Shown here one piece after another: positions 3,642 to 63,623 of a DNA stretch of 64,000 nucleotides; position 1 is the first letter of the stretch, and every line of letters starts with the position of its first letter. The notes below the pieces were generated by a model. It worked only from the letters and a program-made list of their open reading frames with translations. It was not told the origin of the DNA and made no database searches. The translations under genes were made by a program, and so were the position numbers. Source of the stretch: Promethearchaeota archaeon (GTDB lineage: Archaea; Asgardarchaeota; Lokiarchaeia; Sigyniarchaeales; SOKP01); the NCBI GenBank assembly GCA_030599585.1, contig JAUVNS010000008.1:9628-73627 (forward strand). The letters are read 5' to 3'.

Positions 3642-3845
3642 TTACTGGTCCCGAAATAGCATACTTTTATCTAGTTGTCGTTCTTCTTTACAATTGGGGC
3701 ATATCCAAGTTGCATCGTTTTTTTTTATCGAATTAATGCACACGTCACATACAAACGTGTCGCAAATGCAGTAATAGCATCTATCTAGTATATTTTCACA
3801 GTTTTTTCCACATATAAAACAAAATGGTGGAGGATTTTTGGACAT
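3642..3845 (-). CDS. Cysteine-rich zinc-binding mini-protein (treble-clef / RING- or PHD-like spacing)
   Basis: 67 aa with 10 Cys: C9xxC12, C16, C23xxC26xC28, C33xxC36, C49xxC52 (FCFICGKNCENILDRCYYCICDTFVCDVCIN...WICPNCK). Confidence 0.55.
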   Translation of the reverse strand: MSKNPPPFCFICGKNCENILDRCYYCICDTFVCDVCINSIKKNDATWICPNCKEERQLDKSMLFRDQ

Positions 3846-11805: not shown

Positions 11806-12111
11806 ATGCAGCAAGCACGAATAAGACTTAGTAGCACTCAATTACCAGCTTTGAAAGCTGTGTGTGACCAAATTGAAAGCGTATGCAAGAATCAAGGAAT
11901 TAGAAAACTAGGCCCTATTCCTTTACCTACAAAAAGATTACGAGTTCCAGTGATGAAAGCACCATCTGGGCAAGGTACCTCAACTTGGGCAAAATTTGAG
12001 ATGAGAATTCATAAACGCCTCTTTGAAATAACTGCCAATGAACGATCAATGCACCTTATTATGAAAATTCAAATTCCAGAGTCTGTCTTAGTAGAAATTG
12101 AGTTAATGTAA
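11806..12111 (+). CDS. rps10: Ribosomal protein uS10 (S10)
   Basis: ARIRLSS...GPIPLPTKRLRVPVMKAPSGQGTSTWAKFEMRIHKRLFEI matches the archaeal/eukaryotic uS10 consensus. 101 aa. Confidence 0.95.
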   Translation: MQQARIRLSSTQLPALKAVCDQIESVCKNQGIRKLGPIPLPTKRLRVPVMKAPSGQGTSTWAKFEMRIHKRLFEITANERSMHLIMKIQIPESVLVEIELM

Positions 12112-17399: not shown

Positions 17400-17404
17400 T
17401 AAAG

Positions 17405-17713
17405 CAAAAACCTGGATTTCGATTCCAATTCGAATACTACGACCATATAATGTGCTCCTCCACGACCTTACCATAAAGCGTGAACATCTAAACTTACGAT
17501 TGCTCCATCCCTGGCCTGATCGGTTTTGTTATTACGAGTTTATGCCTTCCCTACGGAAGACCCTACTCTGACACCCACCATCATGGGGATCGCTTCGCCG
17601 GAACATAAAATTGGATAATATTCCTCATGAAACCTGAATCCAAGCAATTTGCACTAATGAGGACTTTGTGCTCCGTCCAACAAAGGGACTTTAGGCCACC
17701 CCAAACGGCCCAT
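17405..17713 (-). ncRNA. Signal recognition particle RNA (archaeal 7S RNA)
   Basis: GC-rich, ORF-free island in an AT-rich genome. On the minus strand, helix 8 reads CGAU-CAGG-CCA-GGGA-UGG-AGCA-AUCG (plus-strand 17497-17522): asymmetric-loop CAGG, GNRA-type tetraloop, symmetric-loop AGCA, closing CGAU/AUCG. It is preceded by a helix-6-like hairpin GGUCUUCC-GUAG-GGAAGGC (17544-17563). 5' GGGCCG... and 3' oligo-U. About 309 nt. Ends are approximate. Confidence 0.75.
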
Positions 17714-18886: not shown

Positions 18887-19031
18887 TATAGATATTCCTC
18901 ATTTATCTCTTTAAATATAGTAATTGTGAAGTGTAATATTAAGTTAAACTTTATGTAAAACCAAAAATAAGCTAAACTATAGTTTAATCATCATAAATTA
19001 ATGAAATATGAGTAAATTTTAAGTGATTACA

Positions 19032-20135
19032 ATGTCAGAAAAAATAATATATCTAGATGCAGAAACACTTGAAAGTTTCATGAGAGATGTTTTTATTGGG
19101 CTTGGGGTTCCTAAAGATGATGCCCAAATTATAGCTGAAGTGTTAATTGCTTCTGATATTAGAGGAATTGACACTCATGGAATACAACGCTGTAAAATGT
19201 ATTTTGATCGTATAAAGGCGGGTATCTATGAGGTAGATACTAAAATCGATATCATTAAGGATGGTCCAACTACTGCTCTTTGGGACGGAAATTGTGGAAT
19301 GGGACATGTTATTGCTTATAAAGCCATGAAAACTGCAATTGAAAAAGCGAAAAAGTATGGATTAGGCTCTGTAGCAGTCAGAAATTCAACTCATTTTGGC
19401 ATTGCGGGCTACTATTCACTGATGGCAATTAAAGAAGGGATGATTGGATTGGCAGTAACTAACGCTCGACCTTCCATGCCACCTACCTTTGGAGTCGAAC
19501 CAATGCTTGGCACAAACCCTTTAACTGTGGGTACACCAACAGACGAAAATTTCCCCTTTTTAATTGATTGTGCTACTACTATTGTTCAAAGGGGTAAAGT
19601 AGAGTTATATAATAGAATTAACAAACCTTTACCTGCTGGTGTTGTAATAACAGACAAGGGAAAAATGGAAACTGACCCCGCTATTATATTGGAAAATATG
19701 AGTAAAGGTAAAGCTGCTTTATTGCCTTTAGGCGGTAAGGGAGAAGAAACTTCAGGGTATAAAGGGTATGGATATGCCACATTGGTTGAATTATTATCAG
19801 CCGCCTTACAAGATGGAATATATCTTAAAGACACAATAGGAATTGTAGAAGATGGTCAAAAAAGGTTAAAAGTGGGGCATTTTTTCTTAGCAATTAATAT
19901 CGAGAGTTTTCTTCCTCTCGATGTTTTTAAAAAAACAGCAGGAAACATCATGAGAGGTCTTCGATCTTCTAACAAAGAACCCGGAGCAGATCGAATTTTT
20001 ACAGCCGGCGAAAAGGAATATGATGCGATGACAAGTAGAGGAAAAACTGGAATTCCTCTTAATAAAAGTTTACAAGAAGATATTAAATTTATGCGAGAAG
20101 AACTCAATTTGGATAAATACAAATCTCTTTTTTAA
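19032..20135 (+). CDS. Ldh_2-family (malate/L-lactate/sulfolactate dehydrogenase type 2) oxidoreductase
   Basis: RGIDTHGIQR, VRNSTHFGIAGYY, GTNP, IDCATT..QRGK motifs. First ATG after GTG 19023. Confidence 0.85.
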   Translation: MSEKIIYLDAETLESFMRDVFIGLGVPKDDAQIIAEVLIASDIRGIDTHGIQRCKMYFDRIKAGIYEVDTKIDIIKDGPTTALWDGNCGMGHVIAYKAMKTAIEKAKKYGLGSVAVRNSTHFGIAGYYSLMAIKEGMIGLAVTNARPSMPPTFGVEPMLGTNPLTVGTPTDENFPFLIDCATTIVQRGKVELYNRINKPLPAGVVITDKGKMETDPAIILENMSKGKAALLPLGGKGEETSGYKGYGYATLVELLSAALQDGIYLKDTIGIVEDGQKRLKVGHFFLAINIESFLPLDVFKKTAGNIMRGLRSSNKEPGADRIFTAGEKEYDAMTSRGKTGIPLNKSLQEDIKFMREELNLDKYKSLF

Positions 20136-20286
20136 TAAAAGGTTCCTTTTTTAATTTTTATTAAGAAAAAAGCTAATAATTAATAAGTTTAGAGCTGTAA
20201 ATACGAACTTTCACCTTATATTAGATATGAATTTTATTAAATAGTCTTCTAGATAAATAACTTCTATTGCATTCAAAGTGGTTATA

Positions 20287-21420
20287 ATGACAAGTACAAA
20301 AGCTGATGTTGCATCTAGTTCCAAAGATGTGGTCTACATAGATTTTAGAACGCTTAAGAATTTCATTAAAGATGTATTTATTGGTCTTAATGTGAAGAGA
20401 GCTGATGCTGATATAATTGCTGATGTATTAATTACATCAGATTTACGAGGAATAGATTCACACGGCATTCAAAGATGTAAGATGTATTACGATAGGATTA
20501 AAGAAGGAATATATAATACAGAAACTAAAATAAAGATCGTTAAAAAAGGGCCAACTACAGCTGTTATTGATGGTGGGTGTGGATTAGGACCTGTAATTGG
20601 TTATAAGGCTATGAAATTAGCTATTCAAAAGGCTAAAAAATATGGTCTTGGGGCTGTAGCAGTGAGAAATTCAACGCATTTCGGAATTGCTGGATATTAT
20701 TCGCTTATGGCGATAAATGAGGGTATGATTGGGATTACTACAACGAACGCTAGACCAGCAGTTCCTCCCACATTTGGCGTAGAACCAATGTTGGGAACAA
20801 ATCCATTCACTGCAGGCGCACCCACAGATGAAAATTTTCCGTTTTTAATTGATTGTGCTACATCGATTATTCAAAGAGGTAAAGTAGAAGTGTATGATAG
20901 GATTCACAAACCGCTCCCAGATGGGCTAATAATTACCACAAATGGAAGATCACAGAATGATCCTCACGAAACCCTTAAAAATTTAGAAGAAAGCACTGCT
21001 GCTCTTTTACCCTTGGGAGGTTTAGGTGAAGGAACATCGGGTTATAAAGGTTTTGGCTATGCGACATTTGTAGAGATTTTATCCTCAGGTTTGCAAGATG
21101 GAATATTCCTTAAAGATACGGCGGGGATTATTGAAGACAATCAAAAACGTTTGAAAGTTGGGCATTTCTTTTTAGCGATAAATATAAATCATTTTACCCA
21201 TTTAAAACGGTTTAAGCGAACTACAGGTACTATTATGAGGAACCTTAGAAACTCTAAAAAAGCACCTGGAAAGTCGCGAATATATACCGCTGGAGAAAAA
21301 GAATATTCTTCTGAAAAAAAACGGAAAAACCAAGGCATTCCAATCAATAAAAGTTTACAAGAAGATATTAAAACAATGCAGAAAGAATTGAAATTATTTA
21401 TGTACAATTTTCCGTTTTAA
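20287..21420 (+). CDS. Ldh_2-family oxidoreductase, tandem paralog
   Basis: Same motif set as the upstream gene (RGIDSHGIQR, VRNSTHFGIAGYY). High identity to 19032-20135 over most of its length, by eye. Confidence 0.85.
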   Translation: MTSTKADVASSSKDVVYIDFRTLKNFIKDVFIGLNVKRADADIIADVLITSDLRGIDSHGIQRCKMYYDRIKEGIYNTETKIKIVKKGPTTAVIDGGCGLGPVIGYKAMKLAIQKAKKYGLGAVAVRNSTHFGIAGYYSLMAINEGMIGITTTNARPAVPPTFGVEPMLGTNPFTAGAPTDENFPFLIDCATSIIQRGKVEVYDRIHKPLPDGLIITTNGRSQNDPHETLKNLEESTAALLPLGGLGEGTSGYKGFGYATFVEILSSGLQDGIFLKDTAGIIEDNQKRLKVGHFFLAININHFTHLKRFKRTTGTIMRNLRNSKKAPGKSRIYTAGEKEYSSEKKRKNQGIPINKSLQEDIKTMQKELKLFMYNFPF

Positions 21421-48786: not shown

Positions 48787-49074
48787 ATGGAAGATTTAAA
48801 AGAAAAAGGTTTAAAAATATATAACGCAATGTTTCAAGGAGAAAAAGAGGTCGAAATTGACGAGATACGCTACCCTATAAAGAAATTTTCAAGCGGTATT
48901 AAATATGTTGATTTATTTGGGTATCGCTTTATAGAACAAAATTACCGAAAAAAATCAGAATGGGGGAAAAAAGCTCGAGAAGGACACAAAATCATGTGGA
49001 TAATTAAAGGTAGGAGATATCTTTCTCAGATTTTAGACGGAAAATATTCTGATTTAAAGAAAAAATCATCCTGA
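48787..49074 (+). CDS. Hypothetical small basic protein
   Basis: 95-aa ORF. Its 3' third is duplicated at 50271-50371. Confidence 0.45.
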   Translation: MEDLKEKGLKIYNAMFQGEKEVEIDEIRYPIKKFSSGIKYVDLFGYRFIEQNYRKKSEWGKKAREGHKIMWIIKGRRYLSQILDGKYSDLKKKSS

Positions 49075-49395: not shown

Positions 49396-50244
49396 ATGTT
49401 TTTTCAGACAGATACACCCCCCATTAATCATTATTTCGCAGTACCAATGTTTATTTTCTGGATAATCTTTTCATTATTCGTTATTTTATTAATACGTAAA
49501 AAAAAGTTAAGTCGAAATGTGAGAATTGCGATTCTTGTTGTAGCCACGATTTATGCTGGCATAATTTTTGGAGGTTTTCCTAATCTTATCATGCCTTTTC
49601 AACAAGTTTTATCTACTATTGCAGTGAGAGGTGACCTCACCAAACTCTTTCCTGAAGTTTTCGCAGTATTTGTAGGTTTAATAATTACGACAATTTTCTT
49701 TGGTAGAGTTCTCTGTGGTTTTGTATGCCCTTTAGGAACACTACAGGAATTAATCTCACAAATAAATTTCAAATCTGATGTAAAAGCTCAAGAAAAAAAC
49801 AAATTTCATATTGAAACTTCTTCACAAAAAGCAAGTTTGGTACGAAGGTTTTTCCTCCTTATTTTAATACTCTTAGCGAGTATTTGGAGTATACAAATTC
49901 TACAGATATTCAATCCTAATTTAGGATTTTGGTATTTTATTAACTTTTTTACATTCACATCCATTTTCCCTTTAATCGGGTTGGTTGTAGTATCAATTAT
50001 TAGTATTTTTATATATCGCCCTTTCTGTAGGTATATATGTCCCGCTGGAGCAGTTACTTCTCTTTGTAGTCGAGTTACTAGACGTAAATATCGGCGTACA
50101 AAAGATTGTGATGATTGTGGATTGTGTGAAAAGATTTGTCCAACTCAAGAAGGATCTACTAACAGTAAAAAGAATGAATGTTATTATTGCAATCGATGCA
50201 TTGACGTATGCCCTAAGGATGCTATAGAATTCTCTAAGTCTTGA
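49396..50244 (+). CDS. Membrane-bound polyferredoxin (NapH/MauN/NosR-like 4Fe-4S binding protein)
   Basis: TM-embedded CGFVCPLGTLQE and FCRYICPAGA motifs, plus C-terminal CDDCGLCEKICP and CYYCNRCIDVCP ferredoxin motifs. Confidence 0.8.
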   Translation: MFFQTDTPPINHYFAVPMFIFWIIFSLFVILLIRKKKLSRNVRIAILVVATIYAGIIFGGFPNLIMPFQQVLSTIAVRGDLTKLFPEVFAVFVGLIITTIFFGRVLCGFVCPLGTLQELISQINFKSDVKAQEKNKFHIETSSQKASLVRRFFLLILILLASIWSIQILQIFNPNLGFWYFINFFTFTSIFPLIGLVVVSIISIFIYRPFCRYICPAGAVTSLCSRVTRRKYRRTKDCDDCGLCEKICPTQEGSTNSKKNECYYCNRCIDVCPKDAIEFSKS

Positions 50245-50270
50245 AAATAGAAGTGCTAAGAAGTGAAAAG

Positions 50271-50371
50271 TCCGAGAGGGGCATAAAATAATGTGGATAA
50301 TTAAAGGAAGGAGATATCTTTCTCAAATATTAGACGGGAAATATTCTGATTTAAAGAAAAAATTATCCTAA
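50271..50371 (+). pseudogene. 3' fragment duplicate of the 48787-49074 gene
   Basis: Encodes ...RGHKIMWIIKGRRYLSQILDGKYSDLKKKLS*, versus EGHKIMWIIKGRRYLSQILDGKYSDLKKKSS* in the intact gene. An in-frame TGA lies just upstream (50264-50266). Confidence 0.65.
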
Positions 50372-50484
50372 ACTTATCTCTATTTTGAAAGGAAATCGCT
50401 CTTTTATACAATCTCTGAAATAGTTAAAGTAATTATTTATAGGAATTAACTCAATCAAATCTGATACGGACATAACTTCATCGA
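50271..50484 (+). repeat. Direct repeat copy B (~213 bp)
   Basis: See copy A. It begins 27 nt after the polyferredoxin stop. Confidence 0.7.
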
Positions 50485-50715
50485 CTTCACTTAAGAAAAA
50501 AAAGAAGAATAGATGAAGAACTAAAGAAATAAATCACCCTAATAATGGGATACCGTTCCCATTTCAGGGACTAAGTTGATACAGAATCACATCAATTAGT
50601 AATACTCCGATATCTGAACCTGTAAATACTGGACTCCAGTTTATTTTTAATTGTAAATTGCTATTTTATAATTGTAAGAACATAAAAATAAATCAAAATG
50701 GAGAATTGAAAAATC

Positions 50716-50910
50716 ATGAATGAATTGGTAGAAAATAATGTTGAATATTATAAATTCTTGAGTGTCATTCACGAAATATCGAAAAAATCACATATTATTG
50801 CGATACAGAAAGATAGTATCAGAAAAGTTTATCAGAATTATGATTCAAAGCTATATCGATTAAAATTAGAGAAAGAAATAGCAGAACTCGACAAATTACT
50901 TGTTAAATAA
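50716..50910 (+). CDS. Hypothetical small helical protein
   Basis: 64-aa ORF, coiled-coil-like C-terminus (LKLEKEIAELDKLLVK). Confidence 0.3.
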   Translation: MNELVENNVEYYKFLSVIHEISKKSHIIAIQKDSIRKVYQNYDSKLYRLKLEKEIAELDKLLVK

Positions 50911-51052
50911 ATTACCTATTAATTTAAAATCCTTTTTTTATTATAACCCTAATCAAATAAAAAACAATTAGAGTTACTAATTAGATTAGTTGAGGGTATC
51001 TAACAGTTCCAATTTATTCCCGTTTTAATCATAGATAATAATTGAATTATTT

Positions 51053-52321
51053 TTAATTCTTGAGAGTCTTTATCTTTAGGATTATTTTTAATACTTGAGA
51101 GTCTATTATTGATTGACAATTAAAATTTTTTAAATAATTGTAATTTTTATTAACCCATTCAAAATATTTTCTCTTTAAATCATCCCAAGAGCGAAATGTC
51201 TGCATTCCGATTTTTTTTTTTCTTATTCTACTTATTTTTCCACTAATATCAGATTGAATGTCATTCAATGGAACAAATTCCATATTTAAATCATGACTTA
51301 TTACACAATGAAATGAATATTCTAAATGACGTCTGTTAATCTTTGACCAATATTCATCAATTTTTAATGGATTCAACAAATAATATTTGATTGGCTTATC
51401 ATATTCATGATATGAATCATATTCATATCTTATCAGACGAATTAATGTATGTGATGGAAATACTATCGTTTTTTCTGTATGAACATTTTTCCATTTTCTT
51501 TCTGCCCAATTCTCACCTTTATTATTAAATAAAATTTTTCCTTGAAAATGCTTATCAGAATATCTTGAACAATTTTCACATGAATCAAACACAATTACAT
51601 GAATATTTCCAAGTGAAGATTTTCGAATATAGGCGTGTTTATGTCCTTGTATATGATTTTTCATTTTTAGTTTATTTTGGGTAGTATCAGCATCCAAGAA
51701 AATAGCATTTCTCAGATCCAGTTGTGACACTTCAGCAGAGCGGAGCACGGAATTCTTCGATGTAAGTTTTTGTTTTTTTTTTTCATTTTTTTGAAGTAAA
51801 GGACTCGTATTGACCAAATCCTTATCATTCTTTTTTAAATCAAATAAATTTTTTACTATATCAGGGGTATCAATTGAAAATTGTCGTTTATCGGGAAAAT
51901 ATTCATAATCATATACAATCACATTTTTTTTTTTCATTTCCATAACATATTCATTCAATTCTAGTACATCAAAATCACATTCTTCAATATATTCACTTAA
52001 TTTTGGATTATAACCACTGTTTACCCATATTCTATAATAATTTGGATTATTTCGCAAAGCATAGTTTAATGCTTGATTAGTTCCCGAAGATTCAAAAATT
52101 ACAACTTTAACTTGATTTTTTGTAGCAATTTTTAGAAATCTATCTACTTCGAGTTGTATGTAATCAAAAAATTCTTGATATCCCTCATCTTGATTTAATG
52201 GGTTAAAATTTAAACGCTTATATATCTGTTTTATATCAAATATATTTGTAATATTCATGAAATTTGTTCTTAAGAAGGTCTTTCCAGCACCTACTTCTCC
52301 AACTAAATGTATTATAATCAT
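51053..52321 (-). CDS. P-loop NTPase/kinase-like N-terminal domain fused to an uncharacterised C-terminal domain
   Basis: Walker A at the extreme N-terminus (IIIHLVGEVGAGKTFL) and a hhhhE Walker-B-like VVIFESSG. Lys-rich linker. The C-terminal ~230 aa contain AIFLDADTT, HIQGHKH and CENC but match no family I recognise. Confidence 0.55.
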   Translation of the reverse strand: MIIIHLVGEVGAGKTFLRTNFMNITNIFDIKQIYKRLNFNPLNQDEGYQEFFDYIQLEVDRFLKIATKNQVKVVIFESSGTNQALNYALRNNPNYYRIWVNSGYNPKLSEYIEECDFDVLELNEYVMEMKKKNVIVYDYEYFPDKRQFSIDTPDIVKNLFDLKKNDKDLVNTSPLLQKNEKKKQKLTSKNSVLRSAEVSQLDLRNAIFLDADTTQNKLKMKNHIQGHKHAYIRKSSLGNIHVIVFDSCENCSRYSDKHFQGKILFNNKGENWAERKWKNVHTEKTIVFPSHTLIRLIRYEYDSYHEYDKPIKYYLLNPLKIDEYWSKINRRHLEYSFHCVISHDLNMEFVPLNDIQSDISGKISRIRKKKIGMQTFRSWDDLKRKYFEWVNKNYNYLKNFNCQSIIDSQVLKIILKIKTLKN

Positions 52322-54362: not shown

Positions 54363-54935
54363 TTATTGTCTTTTTCTTAAGTAATAACCCTTATCTACAA
54401 GATTTTGAGCTACTCTTTGATTTGATTTGAGATTTTGAAACGAACTAGAATCAATCGTGGCTCTTGCTATAGCTATAATTTCGTTCTTCTGATTAAAAAC
54501 TGCGATAAGATTATTTTTTTTTAACTTGGGTGGGATCATAGTTATTACGCTCTTTAGGATATCGTTTCCATAGAGAATTGATTTTTCTCCTTCTTCATTT
54601 ATAGTAATTTTATTACTATTTGGAAGAATATGCTGATTACGCAAAAATTCAGCTCCTTCTAAGCTTAAGTGAAAAATTCCTTTCTTAATGAAACCAAAAT
54701 AAATACCCGCTGCATTTATATTCTCATTTCGTAATTTTTCTTCCAAAATATTACTATTTTCGTATGGAACTAAATAGATTAAAGGGAATTTGCTTTCTGT
54801 TTGCTCATCGTTAATAAAAATATAGAACCTATGATCTTTTTTCTTAAAATACGATAGTACTTCGGTTGATAATTTTTGAAGAGAATTAGTAATAAATGAG
54901 TTTTCAATTTTATTAATTAATCTAAAAGTATTCAA
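54363..54935 (-). CDS. nip7: NIP7-like pre-rRNA processing protein (N-terminal NIP7 domain + C-terminal PUA domain)
   Basis: GIYFGFIKKGIFHLSLEGAEFL...KITINEEGEKSILYGNDILKSVI...NNLIAVFNQKNEIIAIARA...NLVDKGYYLRK parallels human/yeast NIP7 blocks (G.CFGKF.K...F.L...ALDYL, EQSFLYGNHVLKS, ADIGEYVR) as I recall them. Confidence 0.75.
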   Translation of the reverse strand: MNTFRLINKIENSFITNSLQKLSTEVLSYFKKKDHRFYIFINDEQTESKFPLIYLVPYENSNILEEKLRNENINAAGIYFGFIKKGIFHLSLEGAEFLRNQHILPNSNKITINEEGEKSILYGNDILKSVITMIPPKLKKNNLIAVFNQKNEIIAIARATIDSSSFQNLKSNQRVAQNLVDKGYYLRKRQ

Positions 54936-55023: not shown

Positions 55024-55740
55024 ATGGGCATTCGTAAAATTGAGGACGAAATAGATTTAAGAGAAGCCATGAAGAAAAAGGCAGCTGAGTTGAAGCTTAA
55101 AGACATGGAAGCAAAAGCTGCAACAGAAAACTTCACAAAAGAAAGGCTTACAGAATTAGCTAAGGCCCATGGAGTCATTTTGGCGTTAACTCCCGAATTA
55201 AAGGCTGAAGTTAAAGCGTTACAAAAGAAGTTTAATATTCCCTCGTCCAAAATAATTACTGAACAGATTACAGAAAACGATGTTTTGAAGAAATTTTCTA
55301 AAATAGATCATGAAAAGTTAGGAATGCTTGCTTACCAAAGAATTTTGATGCAGAAAGAAGAAATTGGAGTAGGATTATTGCCTATTTCTAGAGTGTACGA
55401 ATTAGTAAATACGGGAATTTTAAATGGGATATTAGATGTTAAAGATTTGTTAAAAGCTTTAAAACTACTCAAGAAGAATCATGTCATCGACGATTTGCAA
55501 GAATTTAGCTCAGGTATTGTAATGGTAAGATTTTTTCCAGTTCAATATACTACTGATCAAGTGAAAGTTGTAGGAGTTGCTAAAGATAAGGGTTTTATTT
55601 CTCTTGAAGACGTATGTATTGCTCTAAGCTGGTCTCAAGATCGAGCTTTAGAGACTTTAAAGTCATTAGAAGACACAGGAATGGCGAAGTTAAGAGAATC
55701 TCTCCTTAAGGGAAAGCAATGGTACTTCCCTTCTTTATAA
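55024..55740 (+). CDS. ESCRT-II subunit, Vps22/Vps36-like (EAP30 family)
   Basis: N-terminal helical region plus two winged helices. GLLPISRVYELV...DVKDLLKALKLLKK...SGIVMVRF...GFISLEDVCIALSWSQDRALETLKSLEDTGMAKL...QWYFPSL tracks human SNF8 (GGLITLEEL..., SLKWETERARQVLEHLLKEGLAWLD...YWLPAL) from memory. Confidence 0.85.
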   Translation: MGIRKIEDEIDLREAMKKKAAELKLKDMEAKAATENFTKERLTELAKAHGVILALTPELKAEVKALQKKFNIPSSKIITEQITENDVLKKFSKIDHEKLGMLAYQRILMQKEEIGVGLLPISRVYELVNTGILNGILDVKDLLKALKLLKKNHVIDDLQEFSSGIVMVRFFPVQYTTDQVKVVGVAKDKGFISLEDVCIALSWSQDRALETLKSLEDTGMAKLRESLLKGKQWYFPSL

Positions 55741-55745
55741 ATGAT

Positions 55746-56636
55746 TTATTCTATTTTTATTTTAAATGAAACTTGATCATCCTCTAATCTAATAATCTTC
55801 CCCCTCTTTTCTTTCTCTAACATTTTAAAAATTTTAATAATATCATCATTGGGAAGTTTACTAAACGCTTTGTTAGATTCTCTAATTTCAAATATTAATA
55901 TTGGTTCCAATGGAGAAATCTCCATAGCCCAATCATATATTTCCTCAGCCCAATTATCTAAGCTCTTCCAATAAACTCTTAATTTCTCTTTACTTTTTGA
56001 TAACCATTCAGCTTGTTCTTTTTTAACTAATTCTTCAGCAATTTCCTCTAAGGCTTGTTTACGGTCTTCAAAATTAGAAAAGGGTTTTTCAGATTCAGAT
56101 TGTCGAAGATATAAAATATGAAGTATTGCATACCGTGCGTAATCGAAAAGAACTTTAGACCATTCGCTCTTCCAAGATTCATAGTCTTTCAAGTCAGTTT
56201 TTTTATTTGGAATTGAATACATAAATATATATCTTTTCTCTTCAAGCCACGGGTAATCGTTAAGTAACAATTCATAAGTTGATATTTCTTTAGTAACAGC
56301 TTCTCTTTCCTTTACTATTTCTAGCTCAATCTCGCGAAGTTCTATTTCAATTTGAGCGGCGTTTTGTTCGTATGTTTTTTGGTCTATTTCACCTAGTTTT
56401 GATGTGAGGAGATCTTCAAGTTTATTTAATCGCTCTTCAATTTCTTCACTTGGAAGCCCTTCTTGGATCGCTTCTGAAGCGATTTTTACTGTTTCATCTT
56501 CGATTTCTTTTAAATCCTTTTGTTTCTTTAGCTCTTTTAATCGAGTTAATTCCTTCCTTAAACCATCTAATTCTCTTTCAGGTTTTTCTTTTAAGTCCTT
56601 TACTGTATCTTCAGTTTTTTCTTTTTGCCGTTCCAT
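55746..56636 (-). CDS. vps25: ESCRT-II subunit Vps25-like with ~125-aa N-terminal charged coiled-coil extension
   Basis: The C-terminal 170 aa (YPWLEEKRYIFMYSIP..., AEELVKKEQAEWLSKSKEKLRVYWKSLDNWAEEIYDWA, LPNDDIIKIFKMLEKEKRGKIIRLEDDQVSFKIKI) parallel human VPS25 (LEELRKKGNLEWLDKSKSSFLIMWRRPEEWGKLIYQWV; LLRALQALQQEHKAEIITVSDGRGVKFF) from memory. The N-terminus is E/K-rich heptads. Confidence 0.8.
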   Translation of the reverse strand: MERQKEKTEDTVKDLKEKPERELDGLRKELTRLKELKKQKDLKEIEDETVKIASEAIQEGLPSEEIEERLNKLEDLLTSKLGEIDQKTYEQNAAQIEIELREIELEIVKEREAVTKEISTYELLLNDYPWLEEKRYIFMYSIPNKKTDLKDYESWKSEWSKVLFDYARYAILHILYLRQSESEKPFSNFEDRKQALEEIAEELVKKEQAEWLSKSKEKLRVYWKSLDNWAEEIYDWAMEISPLEPILIFEIRESNKAFSKLPNDDIIKIFKMLEKEKRGKIIRLEDDQVSFKIKIE

Positions 56637-56657
56637 AATCTACATCTTAATATGTTT

Positions 56658-57875
56658 TTAGTATTCTCCGAATTCTGTAGCCCATTGTTCGTATTGGTGT
56701 AAAGAAGATCCTGTAGTCATAGGCTTTACTTTTTTTAAAGTTTTAGTAAAGTCTTTTAATTCAATATCCCTTATAACAACTTCTTGATCGTTATTTTCCA
56801 GAAGCCCACCCATATCTAGTTCTCTAATTGGAAGCATTATAACTTCGCGACATACATTAGATATATCTCTTCCAGAATATCCATCAGATCTAACTCCTAA
56901 CTCAATAAAATCTTCCTCGGTCATAGCCATATTAATACCTGCGGTGTGAATTTTAAATATTCCAACTCTGGCTGGTAGATCTGGAAGAGGAACATACACT
57001 TTTTTTTCAAATCTACTAAGCATGGCTGTGTCAATATCCCATGGTCGATTAGTTGCCCCTAAAACTAACAGAGGTTTTTTAGAGCCTGATTTAACTCCTT
57101 GAATTTCAGCTAACAATTGAGTTTTTACTCTCCTTTCTCCACCGCCTTCGTGACCTTCACCTCTCTTAGTAGCTACAGAGTCAATTTCATCCATAAAAAT
57201 CAGACTAGGGGCTTTTATTCGAGCAACTTTAAAAAGTGAACTGATTAGCTTCTCACTTTCTCCTAACCATTTACTTAATAAATCGGCTGATGAGACACTA
57301 AAAAAAGTTGCTTCACATTCTGTTGCTGCAGCTCTTGCTAATAATGTTTTACCACATCCTGGAGGTCCAAATAATAAAATACCTGACCATGGCTTTCTTG
57401 CTCCTGTGAATAATTCAGGTCTCATAATTGGCAAGACTATAGCTTCTCTTAAGGCTTGTTTGCTTCCTTCTAGACCTGCTATGTCTATCCATTTTACGTT
57501 AGGTGATTCAGTTAAAATAGTCCCCGATATTGAATCTATGATTTCTTGTTCTTCAGCAGAATATAACCCTTCCTCTTCTTTTGTCTCGCCTTCTTTTGGT
57601 TCACCTGGTTTACTAGAAGGTCTTCCTCTCTTAACGCGGGGACCACTTAAGTGGGCTTTAAGTACGGTAGCGCGATCTAAGTATTGCTCGATTTGTTCAT
57701 GGCATTTCCGAATCATTATCGGATTTTTATTAAATTTTACGAATTGTATTAGGATTTCTGCTGCTCTTTGATACTTATTTAGAGCTTGTCTATAATGCCC
57801 CTTTTCATCCAAATCAACGGCAGCTTGCGCTTCTTGAACGGCATATAGGTAAAGTTTACTATCAACACTACTCAA
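56658..57875 (-). CDS. vps4: Vps4 AAA+ ATPase (MIT domain + AAA domain + Vps4 C-terminal helix)
   Basis: MIT-like three-helix N-terminus (AVQEAQAAVDLDEKGHYRQALNKYQRAAEILIQ), Walker A GPPGCGKT, Walker B IFMDEIDS, SRH GATNRPWDIDTAMLSRF, C-terminal YEQWATEFG. TTG start, no in-frame ATG near the N-terminus. Confidence 0.95.
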   Translation of the reverse strand: MSSVDSKLYLYAVQEAQAAVDLDEKGHYRQALNKYQRAAEILIQFVKFNKNPIMIRKCHEQIEQYLDRATVLKAHLSGPRVKRGRPSSKPGEPKEGETKEEEGLYSAEEQEIIDSISGTILTESPNVKWIDIAGLEGSKQALREAIVLPIMRPELFTGARKPWSGILLFGPPGCGKTLLARAAATECEATFFSVSSADLLSKWLGESEKLISSLFKVARIKAPSLIFMDEIDSVATKRGEGHEGGGERRVKTQLLAEIQGVKSGSKKPLLVLGATNRPWDIDTAMLSRFEKKVYVPLPDLPARVGIFKIHTAGINMAMTEEDFIELGVRSDGYSGRDISNVCREVIMLPIRELDMGGLLENNDQEVVIRDIELKDFTKTLKKVKPMTTGSSLHQYEQWATEFGEY

Positions 57876-58096
57876 CGGCTATAACCTTTTAAAAGTAATT
57901 ATTTATCTTATCTATGTTAAAATATTCTTAATATATATAGGTAAGCTAGTTCAATGTTTATTTTATTAATTAATTCTTCCACATATATCAAATTTTCTTT
58001 TTAAAAAGGTATTGTAAACATTGGTCTACAACAAAAAATTATATAATCTTGAGTTTTCTTATATTATATAAAAATAATAATAATTGATGAATTAAG

Positions 58097-58723
58097 ATGG
58101 GTTTTCTCAAAGATATGAGTAATTGGCTCTCAGGAGGCAAGAAAAAAGATACTGTTCGTTCTGCAACCGTCAAGCTTAAAGTGTTTAACAAAAGACTTAT
58201 GAGGCAAACGAAACGCATGGAAATCACAGCAAAACAAGCTAGAGATAAAGCCGTTAGATTGCGAAAAGCTGGTGATATGGATGGGTCCGCATTCCACGCA
58301 CGAAATTATCTTCAAGTTAAAAAACAAGCTAGGGCGATAGACCATTTTAGAACAAATTTAGAAGGAATGGTGTTCAAACTTGAACAGGCTAACGCAGTTA
58401 AAGACATTTCTAACATAATGACTGGCATCGCTGCTAGTCTAGGTGCTTTAAAGAGTCAATTGTCAGTCCCACAACTAACCGAAATGATGACCGAAATCGG
58501 AATTGATATGGAAGACTTTGAAGTAACGCAAGAAATAACTTCGGATGGAATCGATAGTATGACGTTAGATACTGCTGTTTCAGATAGTCAAGTAAAAGAT
58601 ATATTAGGCGAAATCGATGCAGAGATTCAAGTTGAAGTTGGTGGAGCATTACCATCAATAGATCCTGATGGAAAAGTTAAAGAATTAGAAGAAGAGTTAA
58701 ATAAATTAAAATCACGAGATTGA
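58097..58723 (+). CDS. ESCRT-III (Snf7 family), Vps2/24/46 (CHMP1-3)-like, with C-terminal MIM1-like motif
   Basis: Basic N-terminal helical hairpin, acidic C-terminus. VPQLTEMMTEIGIDMEDFEVTQEI resembles CHMP2 LPQIQKIMMEFERQ.... The terminal KELEEELNKLKSR fits LxxRLxxLK-type MIM1. Confidence 0.9.
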   Translation: MGFLKDMSNWLSGGKKKDTVRSATVKLKVFNKRLMRQTKRMEITAKQARDKAVRLRKAGDMDGSAFHARNYLQVKKQARAIDHFRTNLEGMVFKLEQANAVKDISNIMTGIAASLGALKSQLSVPQLTEMMTEIGIDMEDFEVTQEITSDGIDSMTLDTAVSDSQVKDILGEIDAEIQVEVGGALPSIDPDGKVKELEEELNKLKSRD

Positions 58724-58828
58724 GTACTAGCAATATTTAGTTCCTCTTCCTTCCTACCTACCAAAATTATTTAAGGTTAAACTCTATTTTTAATTTATTC
58801 TTAAACTCAATTTGAACGAGTGTTAAAA

Positions 58829-59836
58829 ATGAATCCAGAAGTAATCGCAATTGGTAGTTGTACGCTTGATTGTATGCTACAAGTTAAGGATATTCTTAGA
58901 TTTGAGCTTTTAGATAAGGATATTATTAAAAAATATACAGCAATTGAATATAGTCACAAATTGAATGTAGATGGCGTTTTATTCGTTCCAGGAGGTTCTG
59001 CTGCTAATATTGCTTCAAATTGCGCAATGTTAGGCTTAAAAAGTGCTTATATTGGCGTACTTGGACATGACTTTTCTGCTGATATATGTTTAGATGATAT
59101 GAAAAAGAGGGGCGTTGATTTATCGAATGTCATTCAAACTGATGAGGATTGTACTGCTTTTTCAGTAATTTTAAAAACAGAATGGGGAAAAGATCGAAGT
59201 ATTTTAGCATATAAAGGTGCAAATAATATGTTAAAGCCCGAGGATGTCAAAGAAGAATTTTTTAAAGATATCAAAGCTTTTGCTTGGACTTCCTTGACTA
59301 CAGAAAATGGATGTAGAGCAATCGAAAAAGCACTTACATTTACATTAGAAAATAATGGTAAAGTATTTGCTGCTCCTAGCATGTCAATCATTAAAAATAG
59401 TCCAAAATGGGCAAAAATTTTAATTTCTAACTCGGATGTAGTTTCCCTGAATAAAGAAGAAGCACAAGAATTTACTGAAGAACAAGATACCGTGCCTATG
59501 ATTCATAAATTTTTAGATATGGGCGTAAACTTAATATCTATTACAGATGGACCAAATGGATCCATAATTTCAGACGGTCAAAATATAGTAAATAGTTCGA
59601 TTTACGAAGGACCAGTTGAAGACACAACGGGTGCTGGAGACGCATTTCTAACTGGTCTATTAATATCTCGTCTAAATGGATTTTCTTTAGAAAAGTCCTC
59701 TAAAATGGCAACAGCTATGTCCTATTTAGAAAGTAAGGAGATTGGAGTTCGAGAGGGTCTACCTAACAGCTTAAAAGAATTAGAAGATTTTATTAACAAT
59801 AATCAGATAAAACAGATTGTATCTAAAATTGTATAA
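58829..59836 (+). CDS. PfkB-family carbohydrate/nucleoside kinase
   Basis: GGSAANIA near the N-terminus, DTTGAGDAFLTG catalytic motif. First ATG after GTG 58820. Confidence 0.85.
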   Translation: MNPEVIAIGSCTLDCMLQVKDILRFELLDKDIIKKYTAIEYSHKLNVDGVLFVPGGSAANIASNCAMLGLKSAYIGVLGHDFSADICLDDMKKRGVDLSNVIQTDEDCTAFSVILKTEWGKDRSILAYKGANNMLKPEDVKEEFFKDIKAFAWTSLTTENGCRAIEKALTFTLENNGKVFAAPSMSIIKNSPKWAKILISNSDVVSLNKEEAQEFTEEQDTVPMIHKFLDMGVNLISITDGPNGSIISDGQNIVNSSIYEGPVEDTTGAGDAFLTGLLISRLNGFSLEKSSKMATAMSYLESKEIGVREGLPNSLKELEDFINNNQIKQIVSKIV

Positions 59837-59931: not shown

Positions 59932-60033
59932 GCGCTGCTAGTATAGTGGTCAGTATACTCCTCATTTGGTAAACTAATTTGGGTATAACAGGTTGCCAAC
60001 TTGGTGACCCGGGTTCGAGTCCCGGGCGGCGCA
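59932..60033 (+). tRNA. tRNA-Gly(GCC) with a 28-nt intron at a non-canonical position (5' strand of the anticodon stem)
   Basis: Acceptor GCGCUGC/GCGGCGC+A73. D-arm GUAU-AGUGGUCAGU-AUAC. T-arm CCGGG-UUCGAGU-CCCGG. After removal of 59961-59988 the anticodon arm is CCAGG-UUGCCAA-CUUGG with a 4-nt variable loop UGAC. No encoded CCA. Confidence 0.8.
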
Positions 60034-62138: not shown

Positions 62139-62984
62139 TTAGAGAGTACTGAGAAAATTAGAAACGTTCGAAGGTTTTGGGATTTTAACCTCGAAATAAT
62201 GCTCAACGATTTCGTAAAGAAAGTCGAGATATGGTAATTGGATTTTTATGCTATGAACTTTTGCTATCTCTTCAATTACCTTTTTAGAAATAAGTTTCTC
62301 TTTCTTTTTCAAACTGTTGACTCTTTCAACAATTGTTTCAGAAAGTTCGTAAGATTTTTGGATTGCATTATGCAAATAAATTAAACTTGGTATAGGTTCG
62401 TATTCTTCTAAAAATTTTCTTACTAATAATCTTTCTATACTGATCTTCTTTGGATTAAGAATATCGTCGTAATCTTGAAGGATTTTGTTGTTTTTCAGTA
62501 TAATATCCTCTTTAAAACTCTCGAGTTGGTATTGTTCTTCTGATTTTACCCGTATAGACGTTTTATAGGAATTTTTCGTTATGTAGTTAAAAAAATTGTA
62601 GATCTGATCAACCATGAATGCTTGATCAGTAAGTATCAATACATTTTTCTTAAAAAAAATCGCTCGAATGATGTTTACTAATAAAGTGGCTGTCAAATTA
62701 AGTTTGATAAGGCTCACATCAATTGATTCTAATTGAGGAGACGTTTCAGGGTCCTTAACTGGTCGGGAAGTTATTTCAGGAAGCTCTAATTGAAAATCTG
62801 CTATAAAAGTGTCTCTTACAGTAAGATTTTTGTCGATGTAAGCGACGAAAGAATGTTCACAAGCAATTCCTTCCGATACATTTACTGCAAAAACGCCTCT
62901 AACGGCTTTTTCCACTTCTTCCTCTGATACTTCAATGTATCCTATTCTTGAACAAGATGGACATCGAACTTCGAGCTTTTTCAT
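62139..62984 (-). CDS. Hypothetical protein with N-terminal Zn-ribbon-like element
   Basis: RCPSCSRIGYIEV...GIACEH, then an alpha/beta middle region (DVSLIKLNLTATLLVNIIRAIFFKKNVLILTDQAFMV) and a helical C-terminus. No family recognised with certainty. Confidence 0.5.
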   Translation of the reverse strand: MKKLEVRCPSCSRIGYIEVSEEEVEKAVRGVFAVNVSEGIACEHSFVAYIDKNLTVRDTFIADFQLELPEITSRPVKDPETSPQLESIDVSLIKLNLTATLLVNIIRAIFFKKNVLILTDQAFMVDQIYNFFNYITKNSYKTSIRVKSEEQYQLESFKEDIILKNNKILQDYDDILNPKKISIERLLVRKFLEEYEPIPSLIYLHNAIQKSYELSETIVERVNSLKKKEKLISKKVIEEIAKVHSIKIQLPYLDFLYEIVEHYFEVKIPKPSNVSNFLSTL

Positions 62985-63143: not shown

Positions 63144-63623
63144 TTAATACCGATTTATCTTTGCATATTTCTTTTCAATCAGGTTAGCTATAAGTAAGGA
63201 GATTACTACTGCTAAATTTTCAGATATCAAAAATGCCATTACACTATTTAAAAAGATCAAGCTTATCCCATAAGTACTAAAAAATATAACAGCAAAAACA
63301 GGAAAGACTATTAATATCGGTCTAATAATGGGAAAATATAGTATTGTTCGAAACTTAGATGCCCCTGACCTTGATTTTTGAAATTGGCTTCTCATTTTCT
63401 TCCTTTTTTCAACTTGGACAAAGGACTCAAATATAATAACTACTCCAAAAAACAGAGCTATGGTTGCGCCAATCGGTATTAATATTACTACTAAATAATT
63501 CCCTACCCCCAGTATGAATTGAGCTAAGAATATAAACAATATTTGGAAAATTCCACATGCACCGAATAGCATTAAAGCAATTGGCATGTATTCCTTTGAT
63601 GTCCAGCGAAATCTTATTGGCAT
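63144..63623 (-). CDS. Four-TM membrane protein (hypothetical)
   Basis: 159-aa ORF with four long hydrophobic segments and a basic central loop (KRKKMRSQFQKSRSG). Starts 27 nt downstream of tRNA-Val on the same strand. Confidence 0.45.
   Translation of the reverse strand: MPIRFRWTSKEYMPIALMLFGACGIFQILFIFLAQFILGVGNYLVVILIPIGATIALFFGVVIIFESFVQVEKRKKMRSQFQKSRSGASKFRTILYFPIIRPILIVFPVFAVIFFSTYGISLIFLNSVMAFLISENLAVVISLLIANLIEKKYAKINRY

Follow-up and report, generated by a model that had tools for sequence, protein, structure and literature searches.

A stretch of 64 kb (the window) was analyzed here, in which four adjacent open reading frames of 238, 296, 405 and 208 amino acids lie at positions 55024–58723. 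Their boundaries in the ORF listing coincide exactly with those given by an earlier sequence-only reading, which had assigned them to ESCRT-II (an EAP30-family and a Vps25-like protein), Vps4 and ESCRT-III. All four identities were borne out by profile matches, by comparison with the sequences of solved structures and by synteny. The features considered in the following are:

11806–12111, plus strand: ribosomal protein uS10 of archaeal/eukaryotic type (TIGR01046, 122.8 bits; cut-off 96.25)
17400–17656, minus strand: 7S/SRP RNA (Rfam, 63.8 bits, below the gathering score of 96.5; E 6e-14)
54363–54935, minus strand: NIP7-like PUA-domain protein (Pfam UPF0113, 55.8 bits; PUA, 30.2 bits)
55024–55740, plus strand: Vps22-like ESCRT-II subunit of the EAP30 family, 238 aa (Pfam EAP30)
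55746–56636, minus strand: Vps25-like protein, 296 aa (Pfam ESCRT-II)
55749–56261, minus strand: tandem winged-helix core of the Vps25-like protein, residues ~126–296 (Pfam, PDB sequence matches)
56262–56636, minus strand: N-terminal extension of the Vps25-like protein, ~125 aa (alignment of 25 orthologues)
56658–57875, minus strand: Vps4 AAA+ ATPase, 405 aa, with MIT, one AAA and Vps4_C domain (Pfam)
57876–58096: intergenic region separating the divergently transcribed Vps4 and ESCRT-III genes (alignment of 15 loci)
58097–58723, plus strand: A-type ESCRT-III (Vps2/24/46-like; "ESCRT-IIIA"), 208 aa (Pfam Snf7)
58820–59836, plus strand: PfkB-family sugar kinase downstream of ESCRT-III (Pfam PfkB, 138.9 bits)
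59932–60033, plus strand: interrupted tRNA, recovered with an intron allowed

The genes of the cluster are densely packed and free of introns. Vps4 lies upstream of the Vps25-like gene on the same strand with a gap of 21 nt, and the two are therefore probably transcribed together. The intergenic region between Vps4 and ESCRT-III holds conserved A/T-rich, TATA-like blocks plus other conserved blocks, which stay (nearly) identical in the 15-locus alignment while the identity of the flanking proteins falls to 72–80%. Within the window, these blocks occur once or are no commoner than expected by chance. We infer from the alignment that they are putative promoters; ESCRT-III and the Vps22-like gene would each be driven by a promoter of their own. 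The flanking genes named in the sequence-only reading, NIP7 and PfkB, were correct. The NIP7-like gene is transcribed away from the Vps22-like gene and adjoins it in all related loci with an identity of just 35–84%, while the PfkB gene adjoins ESCRT-III in every related locus that is sufficiently long. Both are conserved neighbors, whose part in the ESCRT system is putative at most.

Every profile for which a search had been proposed (EAP30, Vps25, Snf7, MIT and Vps4_C) gave a match above its cut-off, and all Pfam matches of the four proteins exceeded the curated gathering cut-offs. The EAP30 match of the Vps22-like protein (39.5 bits, cut-off 26.8, E 6.5e-10) covers residues 1–221 and spans the whole model including its N-terminal helical part. 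The protein has a helical region at its N terminus (residues ~1–95) and, behind it, two winged-helix domains. Searched against PDB sequences, a profile built from 25 orthologues matched human SNF8 (2.3e-8) and yeast Vps22 (4.6e-5), with Vps36 as a weaker match (2e-3). The Vps25-like protein also matched the Pfam ESCRT-II/Vps25 family significantly (48.4 bits, cut-off 27, E 1.4e-12). Its PDB sequence matches are 9uyv at 3e-46 (titled "ESCRT-II complex subunit"), 7pb9 at 3e-22 ("Tandem WH domains of Vps25") and, at 2e-8, human VPS25. The first of these is presumably the crystal structure of MK-D1 Vps25 and the second, as we assume, an Odinarchaeota protein. The core has a mean identity of 81% over 24 orthologues. 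The extension, in which no Pfam domain was detected, is charged and predicted to be helical; its conserved segments 1–45 (61% identity) and 63–125 (68%) are separated by a variable acidic linker (46–62; 31%). N-terminal additions on Asgard Vps25 have been reported previously (PMC11188069; bioRxiv 10.1101/2025.11.01.685982).

The two winged-helix proteins might be ordinary archaeal transcription factors next to Vps4 and ESCRT-III, matched through generic winged-helix similarity. The EAP30 match is modest, and in the structure prediction that had been proposed as a check both AlphaFold models are of low confidence (mean pLDDT 50.5 for the Vps22-like protein and 45.1 in the second model). With the Vps22-like model, the top five Foldseek matches were all ESCRT-II Vps22/Vps36 chains, but at a TM-score of ~0.3, so that the fold evidence from this model is weak, and they were followed by MarR-type and Fur-type winged-helix regulators and by TFIIIC/RNA polymerase III chains. 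We nevertheless regard this explanation as very unlikely, given the match to the entire EAP30 model, the best solved-structure matches specifically to SNF8, Vps22, Vps36 and Vps25, the 3e-46 match to a deposited ESCRT-II subunit, and the fixed position of both genes beside Vps4 and ESCRT-III in 26 of 26 related loci. Yeast two-hybrid data on Vps22 self-interaction in Lokiarchaeota and on Vps25–ESCRT-III interaction in Asgard archaea (PMC9192718) also speak against it.

The ATPase carries a MIT domain (residues 12–73; 48.5 bits), an AAA domain (166–297; 136.1 bits), AAA_lid_3 (32.7 bits) and the C-terminal Vps4_C helix (364–403; 26.1 bits, cut-off 21.3). Walker A (GPPGCGKT, from 170), Walker B (DEID, from 229), the pore loop (KWLG, from 202) and the pore-loop-2 arginines R238, R248 and R249 are present. 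According to an alignment with Asgard and eukaryotic Vps4, the beta-domain is missing, as already reported for relatives, and the first arginine-finger position is taken by Ser287, with serine in all 27 Loki orthologue sequences from the fetched loci. Because of these two features, its mechanism need not equal that of eukaryotic Vps4. Identity to mouse VPS4B is 42% (global) or 46% (local), and yeast Vps4 matched with 334 bits over residues 13–355. Of 1.84 billion representative proteins, those that match best as full-length single-AAA sequences come from Asgard archaea or are eukaryotic Vps4; the best 150 include Heimdall/Hod Vps4 (354 bits) and mouse VPS4B (324 bits) and no named TACK protein.

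The ESCRT-III protein matched Snf7 with 62.7 bits (cut-off 27.3, E 4.5e-17). Two motifs, GFLKD.S.WLSGG at the N-terminal end and the MIM1-like L197-x3-L201-x2-L204-K205 (nt 58676–58711) at the C-terminal end, are invariant in 19 orthologues. In a profile search of PDB sequences it matched CHMP2A (4e-11), CHMP1B (2e-10), CHMP1A and Vps24, and no eukaryotic B-type ESCRT-III.

These two proteins could also belong to a TACK-type Cdv division system (CdvB/CdvC), with the two winged-helix proteins unrelated to ESCRT-II. Of the NCBIfam families, CdvC indeed scores highest with the ATPase (268.9 bits), CdvB weakly matches the ESCRT-III protein (31.5 bits), and the ATPase, lacking a beta-domain, aligns with its C-terminal 100 residues nearly end to end with the CdvC chain 4lcb. 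However, the equivalog cut-offs of 650 and 370 bits lie far above these two scores, the EAP30 and Vps25 profiles match above their own cut-offs, and Pfam detected no CdvA among the window ORFs. The ATPase also falls below the PAN and Cdc48 model cut-offs, and mouse VPS4B and protist Vps4 outscore any protein named TACK CdvC, which speaks against a CdvC or proteasomal type. The MIM1-like tail is reported to be lacking in CdvB proteins (PMC7240154). A Cdv system is thus largely refuted and highly improbable.

The four genes are intact and unchanged in order and orientation in 26 related species-level genomes, all Promethearchaeota/Promethearchaeia, two of them labeled Hermodarchaeota. On all contigs of sufficient length, the shared order is PfkB, ESCRT-III, Vps4, Vps25, Vps22, NIP7-like, RsmB-like and CYTH, with the same flanking genes down to 48% Vps25 identity. 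The host genome is therefore of the Promethearchaeia (Loki-type Asgard), in line with the placement proposed from the sequence. The features on which that placement drew were recovered: the AT-rich composition (G+C 27–37% over the window), uS10, the 7S RNA, albeit below the Rfam gathering score, and the intron-bearing tRNA, missed by default ARAGORN and by Rfam. Although such proteins are otherwise characteristic of eukaryotes, contamination by or recent transfer from a eukaryote is refuted by the shared synteny in 26 independently assembled genomes, and dense intron-free packing, a locus G+C of 30–35% matching the rest of the window, uS10 and archaeal SRP RNA on the same contig and an identity to eukaryotic proteins of just ~18–46% make it negligible.

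We therefore read the cluster, with a probability of about 0.9, as the core ESCRT module of an Asgard archaeon of Loki type (class Promethearchaeia), consisting of ESCRT-II (Vps22-like and Vps25-like), the ATPase Vps4 and a single ESCRT-III of A type. It is an ordinary ESCRT gene cluster of these archaea and, as had been stated, already described; its layout agrees with published accounts of Lokiarchaeota (PMC9192718).

The window contains no ESCRT-I or ubiquitin gene, so these components, if present, are encoded outside of its 64 kb. Their absence had been noted correctly, but it is not peculiar to this copy: the compact layout is lineage-typical, as the gene order recurs in at least 26 related genomes. 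In Lokiarchaeota, ubiquitin and ESCRT regions are separate and ESCRT-I genes loosely clustered (PMC9192718). Neither the window nor the 10 kb around the cluster in relatives holds a second ESCRT-III, EAP30 or Vps25 gene. A free-standing steadiness-box gene, which has been reported near the Lokiarchaeota ESCRT machinery, was not detected in either; this box is short and easily missed. A B-type ESCRT-III, the expected partner of Vps25, was likewise absent from both, and the pathway can therefore not be completed from this locus alone.

Motifs for the known interactions are present: the Vps4 MIT domain, the MIM1-like ESCRT-III tail, Walker A/B, the pore loop and the Vps25 tandem winged helix. Judging from eukaryotic ESCRT biochemistry and published experiments with Asgard proteins, a Vps22-like dimer would carry Vps25 subunits, consistent with Vps22 self-interaction. 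Vps25, which is linked most tightly to Vps4 and ESCRT-III and interacts with ESCRT-IIIB (PMC9192718), would bring to the membrane a B-type ESCRT-III whose gene lies elsewhere in the genome. The polymer of this B-type protein may then recruit the A-type subunit encoded here, narrowing the membrane into a tube, in the reported order of B type before A type (PMC11804906). The Vps4 MIT domain would bind the MIM1-like tail, a contact suggested by docking simulation and biochemical assays, and Vps4 would spend ATP pulling subunits from the polymer for remodeling and recycling; yeast vps4 is complemented by Asgard Vps4 (PMC7240154).

Compared with known systems, the cluster shares with TACK Cdv (CdvA, CdvB, CdvC) an ESCRT-III and a MIT-AAA ATPase without beta-domain, but it has ESCRT-II genes and no CdvA, widely misses the CdvB and CdvC equivalog cut-offs, and its tail is of MIM1 rather than MIM2 type. 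In the superclusters of Odin-, Heimdall- and Helarchaeota, ubiquitin, E1/E2/E3-like and ESCRT-I (Vps23/UEV, Vps28) genes lie beside the core (PMC9192718), whereas none of them occurs in the 64 kb here. With eukaryotic ESCRT-II, ESCRT-III (CHMP2/CHMP1/CHMP3 class) and Vps4 it shares EAP30, the Vps25 tandem winged helix, the Snf7 core with MIM1-like tail, and a MIT-AAA-C-terminal helix ATPase with Walker motifs, pore loop and pore-loop-2 arginines. It differs from these in its single Vps22-like gene without a Vps36 with GLUE domain, the ~125 aa helical Vps25 extension, the missing ~35 aa beta-domain (Vta1-binding insert), LSRF instead of RRRF in the second region of homology of Vps4, a single ESCRT-III gene in the cluster and a prokaryotic-style gene arrangement. 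The closest counterpart is the region in Lokiarchaeota and "Ca. Prometheoarchaeum syntrophicum" MK-D1, with the same families (Vps22-like EAP30, Vps25, Vps4, Vps2/24/46-type ESCRT-III), Vps25 tightly linked to Vps4 and ESCRT-III, ubiquitin genes in a separate region, an N-terminal extension of Vps25 and a Vps4 without the human VPS4 insertion (PMC9192718; PMC7240154; bioRxiv 10.1101/2025.11.01.685982). Apart from the undetected steadiness-box gene, we found no substantive difference, and the cluster is that region's orthologue in a further uncultured lineage of the Promethearchaeia.

Four adjacent open reading frames make up the ESCRT cluster, and the ORF listing reproduced exactly the boundaries given to them by the sequence-only reading. 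The cluster lies between a NIP7-type gene and a PfkB kinase gene, both assigned with Pfam and both as first named.

Genes of the ESCRT cluster and its flanks
54363-54935, minus strand: NIP7-type PUA protein (flank)
55024-55740, plus strand: Vps22-like protein, 238 aa
55746-56636, minus strand: Vps25-like protein, 296 aa
56658-57875, minus strand: Vps4, 405 aa, TTG start
58097-58723, plus strand: ESCRT-III protein, 208 aa
58820-59836, plus strand: PfkB kinase (flank)

Pfam matches of the four cluster proteins
238-aa protein: EAP30, 39.5 bits (cut-off 26.8), E 6.5e-10
296-aa protein: ESCRT-II (Vps25, PF05871), 48.4 bits (cut-off 27), E 1.4e-12
405-aa protein: MIT, 48.5 bits (cut-off 30), E 9.6e-13
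405-aa protein: AAA, 136.1 bits (cut-off 21.2), E 1.2e-39
405-aa protein: AAA_lid_3, 32.7 bits (cut-off 27.2), E 5.6e-08
405-aa protein: Vps4_C, 26.1 bits (cut-off 21.3), E 8.5e-06
208-aa protein: Snf7, 62.7 bits (cut-off 27.3), E 4.5e-17

The curated gathering score was exceeded by every one of these matches. The gene identities and the overall interpretation first proposed were right. The four-gene ESCRT observation is confirmed, far beyond chance.

Scanning one genome per species, we found 26 related loci, all from Promethearchaeota or Promethearchaeia and two of them from genomes labelled Hermodarchaeota. By taxonomy lookup, the class Promethearchaeia belongs to the kingdom Promethearchaeati, the Asgard lineage. 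The order and orientation PfkB, ESCRT-III, Vps4, Vps25, Vps22-like, NIP7-like, RsmB-like methyltransferase and CYTH is conserved in every sufficiently long locus, down to 48% Vps25 identity, and copies 98-100% identical to the cluster proteins are present in public assemblies. The Vps25 gene follows 21 nt downstream of Vps4, and the ESCRT-III gene lies 221 nt upstream of Vps4 and is divergently transcribed. Within this 221-bp divergent region, TATA-like and other blocks are identical or nearly so across loci, although the proteins of those loci share merely 72-80% identity; we infer that these blocks are probably promoter elements. They do not recur above chance elsewhere in the window, and we therefore rejected them as a shared regulatory motif.

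Pfam searches of all substantial ORFs in the window gave no gene for ESCRT-I, ubiquitin, E1/E2, a second Snf7 or a second MIT-AAA protein, and when human ubiquitin and the four ESCRT proteins served as phmmer queries, the window ORFs of at least 35 aa returned self-matches alone. Within 10 kb of the cluster, profile searches in the relatives gave no additional gene for ESCRT-III, EAP30 or Vps25, and a B-type (Vps20/32/60-like) ESCRT-III was found neither in the window nor within 10 kb in the relatives. Because the same order occurs in the relatives and further components were not found there, the compact arrangement of four genes is usual in this lineage. The absence of ESCRT-I and ubiquitin genes beside the cluster stands as first noted, but it is not peculiar to this copy. 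In Lokiarchaeota, Ub and ESCRT genes occupy two separate regions, and the genes for ESCRT-I are loosely clustered (PMC9192718).

In every related locus, the NIP7-like gene (54363-54935, minus strand) is the neighbour of the Vps22-like gene, and its product diverges much faster than the ESCRT neighbours (35-84% versus 62-99% identity). Between the NIP7-like and RsmB-like genes, some related loci (L002, L003, L009-L012, L014, L016 and L019; positions 12384-14680 in L003) carry a two-gene insert, of which no homologue was found anywhere in the window. The insert encodes a membrane protein of ~436 aa and a ~318-aa protein with sub-threshold winged-helix matches (HTH_HVO_0163_N, HTH_24). An assignment to ESCRT-I or a Vps36-like subunit was rejected on present evidence, as Pfam gave nothing informative for the 436-aa protein and only the sub-threshold matches for the other. 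Conversely, L003 and L004 lack, between the same neighbours, a stretch that the window has at 49396-52321. Encoded in it are a 4Fe-4S protein (49396-50244) and, at 51053-52321, a 422-aa ORF that has a P-loop at its N-terminus and matches no family. The G+C content of the stretch, ~27%, is the window minimum. A few kb beyond PfkB, a 281-aa protein whose N-terminus starts with a zinc-ribbon-like CxxC motif (62139-62984, minus strand) and a 159-aa membrane protein (63144-63623, minus strand) hold their position in many related loci. Neither these two nor the small conserved neighbour at 48787-49074 matched a Pfam or NCBIfam family.

Among the ESCRT-II candidates, the Vps25-like protein is the better supported. 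A search of PDB sequences aligned its residues 110-294 with 9uyv ("ESCRT-II complex subunit"; 3e-46), and further matches were to 7pb9 ("Tandem WH domains of Vps25"; 3e-22), human VPS25 (2.3e-8) and yeast Vps25 (7e-3). Going by the organisms we assume for them, 9uyv is probably the MK-D1 Vps25 crystal structure and 7pb9 probably Vps25 of Odinarchaeota. The winged-helix core shows a mean identity of 81% among orthologues. In the preceding extension of ~125 residues, the orthologue alignment reveals conserved, predicted-helical segments at 1-45 and 63-125, joined by a variable acidic linker. A steadiness box in this extension was rejected, as Pfam detects none. N-terminal subdomains on Asgard Vps25, some of them steadiness-box-like, were noted in a survey of archaeal ESCRT (PMC11188069). 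The MK-D1 preprint, which reports a Vps25 crystal structure, describes the extension of that protein as unstructured in an AlphaFold3 model (bioRxiv 10.1101/2025.11.01.685982).

The identity evidence for the Vps22-like protein is weaker than that for the Vps25-like protein. The EAP30 profile (Pfam PF04157) is matched over its full length, with residues 1-221 covering profile positions 1-215 of 219. Searched on its own against solved structures, the 238-aa protein reached human SNF8 at 2e-4, and a profile of 25 orthologues searched against the PDB reached human SNF8 at 2.3e-8, yeast Vps22 at 4.6e-5 and Vps36 at 2e-3. Because the orthologue profile ranks SNF8/Vps22 above Vps36, the protein is, as judged by profile similarity, Vps22-like rather than Vps36-like. 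Pfam detected no GLUE or PH domain in it. Asgard EAP30 proteins in general have been described as Vps22-like rather than Vps36-like, and yeast two-hybrid data bearing on a Vps22-Vps25 complex exist for other Asgard proteins (PMC9192718); in the relatives, the adjacency of the two genes is conserved. Since the alignments for structure prediction were built from near-identical homologues (75-100% identity), the models of both proteins were poor. That of Vps25 (mean pLDDT 45.1) was left unused. The AlphaFold2 model of the 238-aa protein (mean pLDDT 50.5) is confident solely in the second winged helix (residues 175-238), and its order of secondary structures is compatible with two winged helices. 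The best five Foldseek matches of this low-confidence model were all ESCRT-II chains (TM 0.24-0.33), a ranking that may lend weak support to an ESCRT-II fold. The two proteins might instead be generic winged-helix regulators, but this is unlikely: the EAP30 and Vps25 matches are specific and full-length, the Vps25-like protein reaches a deposited ESCRT-II structure at 3e-46, and the linkage to Vps4 and ESCRT-III is fixed.

The Vps4 protein has an N-terminal MIT domain (PF04212, residues 12-73), a single AAA cassette with Walker A GPPGCGKT from 170, pore loop 1 KWLG at 202 and Walker B DEID at 229, and a C-terminal helix (Vps4_C). It was judged against CdvC by NCBIfam cut-offs, by its ranking among representative proteins and by a published tree (PMC11188069). 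In that tree, Asgard Vps4 groups with eukaryotic Vps4, and the two together are the sister group of the TACK clade; a second criterion for Vps4 is that other ESCRT genes lie nearby (PMC11188069), and here Vps25 and ESCRT-III adjoin. The ranking covered full-length, single-AAA matches among 1.84 billion representative proteins with cluster names, and the closeness it indicates is one of similarity, not of a tree.

NCBIfam models on the 405-aa ATPase
CdvC: 268.9 bits, cut-off 650, failed
PAN: 210 bits, cut-off 500, failed
CDC48: 256 bits, cut-off 802.65, failed

Matches of Vps4 among representative proteins
Representative of its own near relatives, an unnamed metagenomic protein (68% identical): 586 bits
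Unnamed archaeon: 360 bits
Hod/Heimdallarchaeota cluster: 354 bits
Mouse VPS4B: 324 bits
"Asgardarchaeia" protein: 322 bits
Protist Gefionella: 321 bits

All three NCBIfam cut-offs were missed widely, in agreement with the initial identification of the ATPase as Vps4. No protein named TACK CdvC appeared among the best 150 matches, and among solved structures yeast Vps4 was the best full-length single-domain match (334 bits, residues 13-355).

Two features set this Vps4 apart from its eukaryotic counterparts. It does not have the beta-domain insert (~35 aa in the small AAA subdomain), a feature of eukaryotic Vps4: in the alignment, mouse VPS4B and Gefionella Vps4 carry it, and the five other sequences, from Asgard or unidentified archaea, all lack it. 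Over its C-terminal 100 aa, the protein can be aligned along the whole length with spastin and along almost the whole length with katanin and CdvC. The second feature concerns the second region of homology, which reads AMLSRF, invariant in 27 Loki orthologue sequences read from fetched loci, with Ser287 (nt 57015-57017) at the first arginine-finger position. We take the two residues before the Phe to be the arginine fingers known from Vps4 and spastin. In the alignment, the Vps4 sequences of Heimdall/Hod, "Asgardarchaeia", mouse and Gefionella read RRRF here; two adjacent fingers (RRF) were not found in the window Vps4, and Ser287 therefore replaces the first. We did not find this Ser-for-Arg exchange in Loki-lineage Vps4 described in the literature; it is minor, and its consequence is putative. 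The MK-D1 Vps4 is likewise without the beta-domain (bioRxiv 10.1101/2025.11.01.685982). The pore-loop-2 region contains R238, R248 and R249, equivalent to the "arginine collar" that all Asgard Vps4 are reported to possess (PMC7240154).

The Snf7 core (PF03357) of the ESCRT-III protein spans residues 24-187. A profile of 19 orthologues searched against the PDB matched CHMP2A (4e-11), CHMP1B (2e-10), CHMP1A (9e-5) and Vps24 (9e-5) and gave no match to the eukaryotic B-type proteins CHMP4/5/6/7; with this profile, Heimdall ESCRT-IIIB reached merely 3e-4. By this ranking of similarities, which is not a tree, the 208-aa protein is classed as an A-type subunit (Vps2/24/46). The orthologues share an invariant N-terminal motif, GFLKD.S.WLSGG, and L197-x3-L201-x2-L204-K205 is invariant at the C-terminus of all 19. 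Compared by eye with the MIM1 consensus, this tail is presumably of the MIM1 kind. For the A-type subunit we use the name ESCRT-IIIA (PMC11804906). The CdvB model (NCBIfam) gave 31.5 bits on this protein against a cut-off of 370. That the locus represents a TACK Cdv system is excluded: the cut-offs of both the CdvC and CdvB models were missed, Pfam found no match to the CdvA family among the window ORFs, ESCRT-II is present, and the ESCRT-III tail is MIM1-type. Eukaryotic contamination is excluded by gene density, uniform G+C, archaeal markers on the same contig and synteny in 26 genomes.

Gene identities, motifs and linkage were observed here, and the steps by which the proteins could act are drawn from eukaryotic biochemistry and published Asgard work. 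A dimer of the Vps22-like protein would carry Vps25, which would nucleate a B-type ESCRT-III encoded elsewhere; Vps25 has been reported to bind B-type ESCRT-III (PMC9192718). The B-type polymer would then recruit the A-type subunit of this cluster, and Vps4, its MIT domain bound to the MIM1-like tail, would disassemble the polymer with ATP. Candidate cellular roles of Asgard ESCRT are division, vesicle or protrusion formation, and membrane repair (PMC11804906).

A bolder reading would take the cluster as a partly self-contained ESCRT core without direct ESCRT-I or ubiquitin input. The helical N-terminal extension of Vps25 may then recruit or bridge, for example as a steadiness-box-like hairpin, and the ATPase may run with a single arginine finger (Ser287). 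If true, the cluster would stand for a pathway of the eukaryotic type with a variant mechanism, but we consider the combination highly improbable, and no finding speaks for it in particular. N-terminal additions on Asgard Vps25 are already described, and ESCRT-I and ubiquitin genes may simply be elsewhere in the genome.

Further features were noted elsewhere in the window.

Other features of the window
2016-2864, minus strand: 282-aa protein, sub-threshold first longin domain of FUZ/MON1/HPS1 (20.8 bits, cut-off 26.1)
3642-3845, minus strand: 67-aa cysteine-rich zinc-finger protein, sub-threshold FYVE_2 (19.3 bits, cut-off 27.2)
17400-17656, minus strand: archaeal SRP (7S) RNA, whole Rfam model (1-317), E 6e-14
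19023-21420, plus strand: two adjacent paralogous Ldh_2-family genes (malate/L-lactate dehydrogenase type 2), each ~394 bits (Pfam)
59932-60033, plus strand: interrupted tRNA gene

The first two products are candidates for further eukaryote-like small proteins; the 281-aa protein at 62139-62984, considered as a relative of the longin-like one, proved unrelated. The SRP RNA scores 63.8 bits, far below the gathering score of 96.5; it is a divergent form, rich in A/T, and routine annotation would pass over it. The tRNA gene was missed by default ARAGORN and by Rfam at the gathering threshold, and ARAGORN with introns allowed reports an Ile(AAT) tRNA that has an unusual additional arm. When ~25-32 nt directly behind the D arm are removed, nearly all starts and lengths tried yield tRNA-Gly(GCC). 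This suggests a non-canonically placed intron that separates the D arm from the anticodon stem.

The locus is useful as a taxonomic marker, placing the window in a Loki-type Asgard genome. The literature already covers the ESCRT system, its layout of the Loki type, the extension of Vps25 and the lack of the beta-domain, and the layout was described before (PMC9192718), as the sequence-only reading held for the system. Compared with these known systems, the locus is one more clean and complete example, with no new component or arrangement, whose well-conserved orthologue set exposes two lineage traits, the Ser-for-Arg exchange in Vps4 and the two conserved helices of the Vps25 extension.
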